NCBI RefSeq assembly: GCF_011045215.1
Contig: NZ_CP049201.1
Strand: one strand, 5' to 3'
From: Escherichia coli
Lineage (GTDB): Bacteria > Pseudomonadota > Gammaproteobacteria > Enterobacterales > Enterobacteriaceae
Length of the DNA stretch: 64,000 nt
The notes beneath the pieces were generated by a model that did no database searches, was not told where the DNA came from, and was given only the letters and a program-made list of their open reading frames with translations. Made by a program: the position numbers and the translations under genes. Positions 47,329 to 49,654 of this stretch are shown here, in pieces (within the stretch, counting starts at the first letter, position 1; the number at the start of each line of letters is the position of its first letter).

Positions 47329-47544
47329 GGCCTCTACAATAATCAATTTCCCCTCCGGCAAAACGCCAATCCCCACGCAGATTGTTAATAAACTGTCAAA
47401 ATAGCTATTCCAATATCATAAAAATCGGGTATGTTTTAGCAGAGTATGCTGCTAAAGCACGGGTAGTCATGCATAAAACGAAATAAAGTGCTGAACAACA
47501 ACATCACAACACACGTAATAACCAGAAGAATGGGGATTCTCAGG

Positions 47545-48648
47545 ATGAACATAAAGGGTAAAGCGTTACTGGCAGGATGTATCGCGCTGGCATTCAGCAA
47601 TATGGCTCTGGCAGAAGATATTAAAGTCGCGGTCGTGGGCGCAATGTCCGGTCCGGTTGCGCAGTACGGTGACCAGGAGTTTACCGGCGCAGAGCAGGCG
47701 GTTGCGGATATCAACGCTAAAGGCGGCATTAAAGGCAACAAACTGCAAATAGTAAAATATGACGATGCCTGTGACCCGAAACAGGCGGTTGCGGTGGCGA
47801 ACAAAGTCGTTAACGACGGCATTAAATATGTGATTGGTCACCTCTGTTCTTCATCAACGCAGCCTGCGTCTGACATCTACGAAGACGAAGGCATTTTAAT
47901 GATCACCCCAGCGGCAACCGCGCCGGAGCTGACCGCCCGTGGCTATCAGCTGATCCTGCGCACCACCGGCCTGGACTCCGACCAGGGGCCGACGGCGGCG
48001 AAATATATTCTTGAGAAAGTGAAACCGCAGCGTATTGCTATCGTTCACGACAAACAGCAATACGGCGAAGGTCTGGCGCGAGCGGTGCAGGACGGCCTGA
48101 AGAAAGGCAATGCTAACGTGGTGTTCTTTGATGGTATCACCGCCGGGGAAAAAGATTTCTCAACGCTGGTGGCGCGTCTGAAAAAAGAGAATATCGACTT
48201 CGTTTACTACGGCGGTTATCACCCGGAAATGGGGCAAATCCTGCGTCAGGCACGCGCGGCAGGGTTGAAAACTCAGTTTATGGGGCCGGAAGGCGTGGCT
48301 AACGTCTCGCTGTCTAACATTGCGGGCGAATCAGCGGAAGGGCTGCTGGTGACCAAGCCGAAGAACTACGATCAGGTTCCGGCGAACAAACCCATTGTTG
48401 ACGCCATCAAAGCGAAAAAACAGGACCCAAGCGGCGCATTCGTCTGGACCACCTACGCCGCGCTGCAATCTTTGCAGGCGGGCCTGAATCAGTCTGACGA
48501 TCCGGCTGAAATCGCCAAATACCTGAAAGCGAACTCCGTGGATACCGTAATGGGACCGCTGACGTGGGATGAGAAAGGTGATCTGAAAGGCTTTGAGTTC
48601 GGTGTGTTTGACTGGCACGCCAACGGCACAGCGACCGATGCGAAGTAA
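47545..48648 (+). CDS. livJ: Periplasmic Leu/Ile/Val-binding protein
   Basis: 367-aa product starting [23 protein letters not shown] (signal peptide); close paralog of the livK product in this window. Confidence 0.9.
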
Positions 48649-48705
48649 TCATTAATCGGCAACTTTGGGTTGCCGCCAAATTGCTAATATCGAGTACGTT
48701 GCTTC

Positions 48706-48807
48706 ATGCCGGATGCGGCGTAAACGCCTTATCCGGCCTACAAGATCCAAAGAAATCAGTAAATTGCAGCACACATTGTAGGCCTGATAAGCGTAGCGCA
48801 TCAGGCA
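48706..48807. repeat. Pair of REP (palindromic unit) elements
   Basis: gccggatgcggcgtaaacgccttatccggcctaca and the inverted copy tgtaggcctgataagcgtagcgcatcaggca. Confidence 0.8.
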
Positions 48808-48847
48808 ATTTCTCGTTGGTCATCACTTTTGAAATCAAACTTGACGA

Positions 48848-49231
48848 TTAACGCTTTTCCCAGCCGCCCTGTTGTGCCGTAAATCCCAGTGCCTGCATAA
48901 ACGCCGTCATCACACCGCGATCTTCCACGCCTGCATCCGCCATCCACCAGGATGAAACGCTGGGATTATCACGCAAAACCTCTTCCAGTAGATATTGCCC
49001 CACGCCGCGACGTCGGGTGACTTCCCGCACGCGCAGGGAATCCAGTGTTCCCCCAATGCCGCTCAAGGTTACGCGTACAGCCGCAAGCAGGCGCTCGTTA
49101 AAACGCGCGGCGTAGATGCGGTGGTTATCGTCAACCTGTAAAGAGGAAGGGGAATACTCCGGCCAGATCTTTTGCAGGTCAATCCGGTCCTGGTCGCTAA
49201 AGTTTTCTAATCGAATGATGGTCAGCTTCAT
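48848..49231 (-). CDS. panM: PanD maturation factor (GNAT-like)
   Basis: 127-aa ORF starting MKLTIIRLENFSDQD; conserved position between livJ and livK. Confidence 0.88.
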   Translation of the reverse strand: MKLTIIRLENFSDQDRIDLQKIWPEYSPSSLQVDDNHRIYAARFNERLLAAVRVTLSGIGGTLDSLRVREVTRRRGVGQYLLEEVLRDNPSVSSWWMADAGVEDRGVMTAFMQALGFTAQQGGWEKR

Positions 49232-49654
49232 GGGTAACCCGTGTAAATCACAAAAGTGGAACCAGTGTAGCGAAATAATTTAATCGGAGGCTTTCTCTTT
49301 TTTATTTCTTTTGGCAGGTGATTAATTTTTTAACAGCAATAATTGCAAAGTTAAAACATTAGAGAATGAAAAATACCCAGCATAATCCCCTGAATGGTAG
49401 TGAATTATTCCGCCCTTTGTGCCGTTATTTTATGCTGACAAAGGCACTTTTTTCTGTTTATCTATCAATAAATTCAGAATATTATCTGTTCTTAATCGAC
49501 TGAAAAATAGGGACTTTAATCGCTATTATCACAAAATACTGCGCTAAACCCTTAATCAGACAGGCAAAAACAGTGCAGTATAAAAAAAGAACAGTCTGAT
49601 TTGTTAACACATAAAAACAAAGCAACACAACATCACGAATGGGGATTTTTGACT

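Follow-up and report, generated by a model that had tools for sequence, protein, structure and literature searches.

The regions upstream of livJ and livK, two paralogous binding-protein genes of Escherichia coli, were examined in a 64,000-nucleotide stretch of one genome (the window; contig NZ_CP049201.1). They are, on balance, best described as ordinary cis-regulatory sequences of two co-regulated paralogs, comprising pairing sites for the small RNA GcvB, a candidate operator at a transcription start site (TSS), and an RNA fold. As judged by complementarity, the sequence motif shared by the two leaders is the published pairing site for the R1 region of GcvB joined to a Shine–Dalgarno block, with repression known from the literature. 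A palindrome upstream of livJ straddles the transcription start of that gene as a DNA-level element, and its inner 15 bp form a plausible, if tentative, candidate operator for Lrp. Two helices in the livJ leader RNA, termed H2 and H3, are supported by covariation; they are the sole potentially new item and are apparently undescribed.

The comparative evidence derives from a one-genome-per-species scan that yielded 80 LivJ loci, from which 58 distinct Enterobacteriaceae livJ promoter–leader sequences were aligned (hereafter, the 58 lineages). The livK leader comparison covers 46 species.

Shared Leader Elements and GcvB Pairing

A sequence-only reading of the window had proposed that livJ and livK share a leader motif and that their duplication included the translation initiation region. 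The motif is real and restricted to the two leaders, where it resolves into a C/A-rich word of 10 nt, ACAACATCAC, and a Shine–Dalgarno block of 11 nt, GAATGGGGATT. Each word is found at the livJ and livK leaders only when both strands of the 64 kb are searched. The livJ span originally assigned to the motif, 47521–47544, nevertheless omits AACATCAC at 47500–47507. In livJ, the two words occupy 47498–47507 and 47528–47538 and are 20 nt apart; in livK, they abut within 49627–49647, the copy of AACATCAC at 49629–49636 being followed directly by GAATGGGGATT at 49637–49647.

The C/A-rich word coincides with the GcvB target in both leaders. The gcvB sequence was taken from the K-12 record, and the matched segment is its G/U-rich R1 seed. 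In livJ, ACAACAUCACAAC (47498–47510, plus strand), which includes AACATCAC, is a 13-nt perfect complement of GcvB nt 64–76. In livK, CAACACAACAUCAC (49623–49636, plus strand) is a 14-nt perfect complement of nt 67–80 and the sole 14-mer GcvB match in the window. Apart from these two sites, no GcvB complement of 12 nt or more occurs in the 64 kb. A 10-nt complement at 9654 on the minus strand, a match to CAATTGCAAA in apparent coding sequence, was considered and set aside as most likely due to chance. Sites were ranked by perfect-complement length instead of RNAduplex energy, since long interior loops make the latter uninformative for livJ (15 of 300 shuffles were equally good).

The livJ site has a mean majority frequency of 0.92 across the 58 leaders, and most of the 46 livK leaders retain CATCACG. 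Among more distant Enterobacterales, for which one LivJ-like gene was examined per locus, a C/A-rich stretch is again followed by ATGGGG. The window strain carries C in place of A at 47496, just beyond the pairing core.

GcvB control of livJ and livK is already published. Both genes are R1 targets verified in Salmonella and give RIL-seq, CLASH, and MAPS signal in E. coli (PMC9299463), and a GcvB R1 mutant controls an E. coli PBAD-livJ-lacZ fusion less well than does wild-type GcvB (PMC3536696). For livK, the listing in E. coli is as a conserved target, not a verified one. Abundant GcvB, as in rich medium, pairs with the C/A element ACAACAUCAC and lowers translation of both binding proteins. 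R1 is the G/U-rich seed of this Hfq-dependent small RNA, and its pairing site abuts the Shine–Dalgarno block in livK and lies 20 nt upstream of it in livJ.

The Shine–Dalgarno block of livJ (47528–47538, plus strand, with GGGGA at 47532–47536) is identical to that of livK (49637–49647, plus strand, with GGGGA at 49641–49645). GAAUGGGGAUU is the Shine–Dalgarno region: the end of GAATGGGGATT is 6 nt from the ATG in livJ and 7 nt in livK, and the end of the GGGGA core is 8 nt from the livJ ATG at 47545 and 9 nt from that of livK. ATGGGGA is near-invariant in the 58 livJ lineages, and livK of other genera conserves the block as GAA[T/C]GGGG[A/T]T.

Inclusion of the translation initiation region in the duplication is plausible, as both words are conserved in the 58 livJ and 46 livK leaders. 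The proposal had missed what the words are, a GcvB site and a Shine–Dalgarno block, and the motif appears to be retained because of selection for GcvB pairing, beyond ancestry alone. Outside the shared words, the alignment of the two leaders is weak, with a local score of 26 against 18 ± 2.7 for shuffles. Homology of the whole leaders was rejected on this basis, the local alignment being just ~3 standard deviations over shuffles.

Several further features surround the livJ start codon. An AUG within the Shine–Dalgarno block (AAUGGGGA, window 47530–47547) precedes the livJ start by 15 nt and shares its reading frame; B2-type E. coli strains (ATCC 25922) have GUG instead. All 58 lineages carry CAGGAUG at the start codon, and in most genera a second AUG occurs two codons past the livJ start (AUGAAnAUGAAG). 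In this setting, GGA resembles a CsrA motif.

The livJ Promoter and the Dyad at Its Transcription Start

The livJ promoter is assembled from a −35-like hexamer, TTCCAA (47408–47413, plus strand), and a −10 hexamer, TATGTT (47430–47435, plus strand), separated by 16 nt. TTCCAA has a mean majority frequency of 0.91, with T47408, T47409, and C47411 invariant or near-invariant in the 58 lineages. It was not called by a simple promoter scan because it matches at 3/6 positions only. TATGTT is conserved at 0.88 and precedes the TSS of a literature construct by 5 nt; one E. coli strain has TATATT in its place. The −35 hexamer, 16-nt spacer, and −10 hexamer are kept whatever the upstream gene, and the block GGTATGTTTTAGCAGAGTATGCTG is likewise retained irrespective of that gene, which is rpoH in some genera and differs elsewhere.

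The TSS, A47441 (plus strand), is taken from the published PBAD-livJ-lacZ fusion. The primer 5′LivJ-lac consists of PBAD homology followed by agagtatgctgctaaagcacg (PMC3536696, supplement file 2), and for the phoP fusion in the same strain transcription is expected from the native TSS (PMC3536696). The livJ fusion is assumed to share the design of the phoP fusion, and +1 is thus A47441. The Conway 2014 and Ziegler 2023 supplements contain no livJ or livK entries. PlivJ is a standard case of promoter activation by ppGpp/DksA and by TraR, and at the Salmonella livJ promoter RNA polymerase alone gave no initiation in vitro.

Other promoter assignments were tried and rejected. A sigma-54 promoter, in which TAGCAG-N4-TGCT is likened to TGGCAC-N5-TTGC, fails on inspection, with spacing 2 nt short and AG at the invariant GG. 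Inspection likewise disfavors a sigma-32 promoter on the minus strand: CCCCAT is found in many genera but reads CCCGAT in E. coli, and a −35 at a workable distance is missing. AAAAAT (47420–47425) as the real −10 would lack a usable −35 and would imply a start near 47432, in conflict with the published fusion. No −35 was found for a second internal promoter at AATAAA (47482–47487).

AAAAAT itself sits in the livJ promoter spacer (−21 to −16). It is invariant in livJ, its final AAT being invariant or near-invariant across the 58 lineages, and its AAAA core (T in most species) is conserved in livK. The livK counterpart, at 49566–49571, is GGTAAAAAT, or AAAAAC in E. coli, with the As invariant.

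The palindrome TAGCAG-agtatg-CTGCTA, noted in the sequence-only reading, is present at exactly 47437–47454 and spans −4 to +14 of this promoter. Its left arm comprises the last part of the discriminator together with +1, and its right arm is early transcribed sequence. It extends to perfect 8-bp arms, TTTAGCAG-agtatg-CTGCTAAA (47435–47456, −6 to +16), and to 10 of 11 matches over 47432–47459. A palindrome with 6-bp arms is not rare as such: the window holds 31 perfect examples with a 6-nt spacer, against ~16 expected (64000/4096), and 5 with 8-bp arms.

Conservation is concentrated in the interior of the palindrome. Perfect 6-bp arms occur in 13/58 lineages and 8-bp arms in 8/58. Pairing in the palindrome register amounts to 81% of cells, and just 21/58 lineages keep A47438–T47453, the fourth arm pair counted from the outside. 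The core TAGCA-GAGTA-TGCTG (47437–47451, −4 to +11) is present as TAGCA-N5-TGCTG in 49/58. Its half-sites are conserved at 0.97 and its center at 0.81, with GAGTA, TAGTG, GAGTG, GAGAA, and others found as centers, and the 15-mer is among the best-conserved stretches within the examined interval 47396–47547. Judged by these frequencies, the inner 15 bp alone, and not the full palindrome, are under selection. Because TAGC lies upstream of +1, its conservation acts on DNA.

A Candidate Lrp Operator

That the palindrome could be a regulator-binding site was also suggested in the sequence-only reading. For Lrp, this proposal gains from the overlap with the TSS, from the conserved 15-mer, and from a match to 13 of the 15 positions of the Lrp consensus; it loses from the palindrome being intact in a minority of lineages and from the frequency of chance matches. 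The 15-bp consensus, YAGHAWATTWTDCTR, is said to originate with Cui et al. 1995. The core at 47437–47451 departs from it by 2 mismatches (13/15 on either strand); within the 280 bp upstream of livJ (47280–47560), no other position comes as close as 3 mismatches.

By chromatin immunoprecipitation, Lrp occupancy is high at the TSSs of both livJ and livK, whether or not leucine is present (PMC10127797), and livJ is listed in the RegulonDB Lrp regulon. The candidate site (−4 to +11) thus lies in a promoter that Lrp occupies and regulates according to the literature, in a search of which no Lrp footprint on livJ turned up. Bound at the 15-bp core, Lrp would repress the weak, ppGpp/DksA-dependent livJ promoter by blocking initiation or promoter escape, and an operator placed over +1 fits repression.

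RNA Helices in the livJ Leader

Helix H3 (47447–47468, plus strand) pairs 47447–47453 with 47462–47468 and in E. coli has 6 bp, 47448–47453 with 47462–47467. Its four core pairs are 79–98% paired among the 58 lineages. The 5′ strand is UGCUG, which is near-invariant and is the same sequence as the transcribed half of the DNA core. Across from it on the 3′ strand, C is faced by G in 54/58, G by C or U, and U by A or G. The changes in H3 are one-sided and wobble-compatible only. Two E. coli polymorphisms, A to G at 47465 and T to C at 47467, preserve H3 pairs.

Helix H2 (47456–47492, plus strand) pairs AGCAC (47456–47460) with GUGCU (47488–47492) and is found in the states AGCAC/GUGCU, AGCGC/GCGCU, GGCGC/GCGCC, GGCAC/GUGCC, and GACAC/GUGUC. 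Two-sided change affects 4/5 pairs (AU:27/GC:23 and AU:30/GC:22), and 92% of cells are paired. Both sides have changed in 54 cells, compared with 16 ± 7 in shuffles; the covariation score was reached by 0/500 shuffles, and its value of 0.241 compares with at most 0.095 for slid controls. By parsimony on a neighbor-joining tree of livJ coding sequences, the two sides of the outer pair have undergone at least 11 and at least 10 changes. The spread of H2 changes over the tree points to many independent events, and the G–U cells place the structure on the plus-strand RNA.

H3 extends from +8 to +27 and H2 from +16 to +52, and 5 nt separate the end of the fold from the GcvB site. Alone, H3 and H2 are predicted at −5.3 and −5.2 kcal/mol, respectively, in E. 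coli. The 5′ strand of H2 lies inside the H3 loop, giving an H-type pseudoknot topology with geometrically plausible loops (L1 2–4 nt, L2 1–3 nt, L3 19–55 nt), in which the helices may either coexist or alternate; the ViennaRNA folding applied here does not model pseudoknots. A search of 47200–49750 with the 4227 covariance models of Rfam 15, at E up to 10, left the leader elements uncovered and returned REP/naRNA4 as the only real matches.

The H2/H3 fold would stabilize the 5′ end and/or hold the C/A element single-stranded. A more ambitious proposal, that H2/H3 is a cis-regulatory RNA that sets the fate of the message (Rho access, RNase E entry, Hfq/GcvB recruitment) according to leucine supply, is improbable. 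LIV-I repression reportedly depends on rho and leucyl-tRNA, according to older literature; a leucine-responsive H2/H3 RNA, if true, could account for this need in addition to Lrp.

The livJ leader occurs in two lengths. The short form is found in Escherichia, Salmonella, Citrobacter, and Enterobacter. The long form, with ~33 extra nt in the H2 loop (window 47461–47487), is found in Klebsiella, Raoultella, Kosakonia, Phytobacter, and Kluyvera. The long-form insert, CTATCATATGCTTTTCTTATGA, is similar to CTAAATCATTATTACTTATGA, a livK-type sequence found upstream in Serratia and Dickeya.

Alternative Explanations

Several observations weigh against the account given above. The livJ TSS derives from one published primer design and not from raw mapping data. 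Lrp consensus matches with 2 or fewer mismatches number 13 in the window, against 6.9 ± 2.9 expected. Both mismatches in the livJ core fall in its center, where GAGTA is not A/T-rich, and the consensus center is approached in no lineage. Lrp usually binds multiple sites cooperatively, and livJ offers one candidate site versus eight upstream of livK. Folded as a single sequence, the E. coli leader does no better than its shuffles (z = −0.03), and its minimum-energy structure lacks H2. Moreover, the conservation of the core is explicable without a regulator, through a discriminator/TSS requirement for TAGCA and the use of UGCUG as an H3 strand. The corresponding reading, that no regulator binds and that the symmetry seen in Escherichia, Salmonella, and Citrobacter is a coincidence of two unrelated constraints, is nearly as likely as an Lrp operator. 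It treats TTTTAGCA as the discriminator/start sequence required for the kinetics of a weak, ppGpp/DksA-activated promoter, of which PlivJ is a model together with its activation by TraR, and UGCUG as the 5′ strand of a helix that follows RNA-type pairing rules. The unconserved outer arms, the scarcity of the perfect palindrome (13/58) and of the A47438–T47453 pair (21/58), the conservation of the CA start context in livK too, and the ease with which the Lrp consensus is matched by chance are all in keeping with it. Yet the discriminator, at 0.98, is more conserved than the −10 hexamer, at 0.88, and conservation of a discriminator beyond that of the −10 is unusual for a purely kinetic requirement. 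UGCUG is near-invariant although its H3 partner varies freely, which argues for a second constraint on the UGCUG strand, and Lrp is present at the livJ TSS in vivo.

Two readings place the palindrome in the message instead. One regards it as a 5′-terminal stem-loop of the livJ mRNA (UUUAGCAG...CUGCUAAA) that stabilizes the message or hides it from RNase E. Perfect 8-bp arms and a 6-nt loop would form a good hairpin, and RNAalifold predicted the inner hairpin once nucleotides upstream of the TSS were included; however, the TSS, A47441, falls inside the left arm (47435–47442), leaving just 2 nt of that arm in the RNA, and the −10 at 47430–47435 cannot drive a start upstream of 47435. The inner register is also devoid of covariation, and the outer register is poorly kept. 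With the left arm mostly outside the transcript, such a hairpin is virtually excluded. The other reading regards the livJ leader as a leucine-sensing attenuator, in which a mini open reading frame or H2/H3 couples leucine or Leu-tRNA to premature (Rho-dependent) termination and to which the right arm of the palindrome would belong. A frame of this kind, AUG CUG CUA AAG CAC GGG UAG (MLLKHG, with two Leu codons), is present at 47446–47466; 56/58 lineages keep [A/G]UG at 47446 along with the CUG after it, the RNA helices H2 and H3 are conserved, and Williamson and Oxender reportedly described premature termination of livJ transcripts in 1992. On the other hand, its AUG is just 5 nt from the mRNA 5′ end and is not preceded by a Shine–Dalgarno sequence, its length and sequence are not conserved past Met-Leu, and the matching livK element has no AUG in Citrobacter, Salmonella, and E. 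coli. No terminator lies downstream of the helices, and H3 and the DNA core already explain the conservation of UGCUG. An attenuator is very unlikely.

The livK Upstream Region and Origin of the Promoters

Most genera carry a palindrome upstream of livK, AAAAAGCA-CAGNN-TGCTTTTT, with 8-bp arms ~70 nt from the ATG (loci L009, L010, L023, L025, and others), at a position that corresponds to the livJ TSS dyad. In E. coli, this livK dyad is degenerate, reading AGAACAGTCTGAT at 49588–49600 with both central pairs lost. The block that precedes the livK dyad, GGTAAAAATAGCGTTGTTTAATAAAAGCACAG, resembles the livJ promoter, CATAAAAATGGGGTATGTTTTAGCAGAG, and by virtue of this likeness the two promoters are probably homologous. 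No TSS for livK emerged from a literature search.

In the 438 bp upstream of livK, the Lrp consensus is matched with 3 or fewer mismatches at 8 positions, compared with ~0.6 expected; these fall at 49268–49437, 49527–49541, and 49592–49606. A separate sequence, CAGAATATTATCT (49475–49487), is invariant across genera and has the perfect left half and center of the Lrp consensus.

LivJ-like genes of Dickeya, Pantoea, Serratia, Rahnella, and Erwinia (76–80% identity, loci L067–L082) have livK-type upstream sequence and do not carry the livJ promoter block. This distribution suggests that the livJ-specific promoter and leader arose within the Enterobacteriaceae.

Genomic Context

The gene order in the E. 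coli window is rpoH-livJ-panM-livK, and the K-12 record lists rpoH, livJ, panZ/panM, livK, and livH. By megablast, the 2.4-kb stretch was matched in 5,255 of 5,426 complete genomes, with livJ, panM, and livK as its annotated genes. K-12 MG1655 is identical to the window over 47340–47560 with the sole difference at 47496. The rpoH gene ends at 47274, with a terminator-like hairpin downstream at 47291–47320. The livJ coding sequence occupies 47545–48648 (plus strand), panM 48848–49231 (minus strand), and the livK coding sequence 49655–50764 (plus strand). LivJ and LivK share 77% identity in protein and 74% in DNA.

Between livJ and panM, 48683–48849 contains REP-type repeats, which give sub-threshold Rfam naRNA4 matches on both strands (best 40.4 bits versus a gathering score of 59.5). 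A long antisense RNA named ArpH has been reported opposite rpoH in Salmonella Typhi, with a coding region that also overlaps yhhK; the strand of an ArpH-type RNA here would be the minus strand, window 47275–48850.

Significance and Comparison with Known Systems

The elements described here are of known kinds, with the GcvB part published, and the sequence-only reading is partly supported and partly corrected. As first noted, the finding mostly re-describes known biology, and its chief value is correct annotation. Placing the palindrome on the TSS, with a conserved core of 15 bp, provides a precise, testable candidate for the Lrp repression site of a promoter that is unusual in retaining Lrp whether or not leucine is present. 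If they affect expression, the leader helices would constitute a third regulatory layer, in addition to GcvB acting at the C/A element and Lrp plus ppGpp/DksA acting at the promoter.

Among ppGpp/DksA (TraR)-activated promoters (PthrABC, PhisG, PargI, and PlivJ), PlivJ is a named member, weak and with a poor −35 hexamer; the accessible literature on this class does not discuss its TSS-straddling dyad or leader helices. With Lrp operators, the livJ core shares a dyad of YAGHA/TDCTR half-sites 5 bp apart, an Lrp-repressed gene, and in vivo Lrp occupancy. It differs from them in its center, GAGTA versus an A/T-rich WATTW, and in being a single site versus an array. The “livJ motif” riboswitch candidate (Breaker lab 2024, PMC11109978) resembles H2/H3 as a conserved RNA structure upstream of a gene of the LIVBP family. 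In contrast, that motif is found mostly in Streptomyces and has the Shine–Dalgarno sequence inside P1, whereas the enterobacterial H2/H3 lies ~40 nt upstream of the Shine–Dalgarno sequence. The GcvB sites of livJ and livK described here are identical to the R1 sites published for these genes alongside those of dppA, oppA, gltI, and argT (Sharma et al. 2007, as represented in citing papers).

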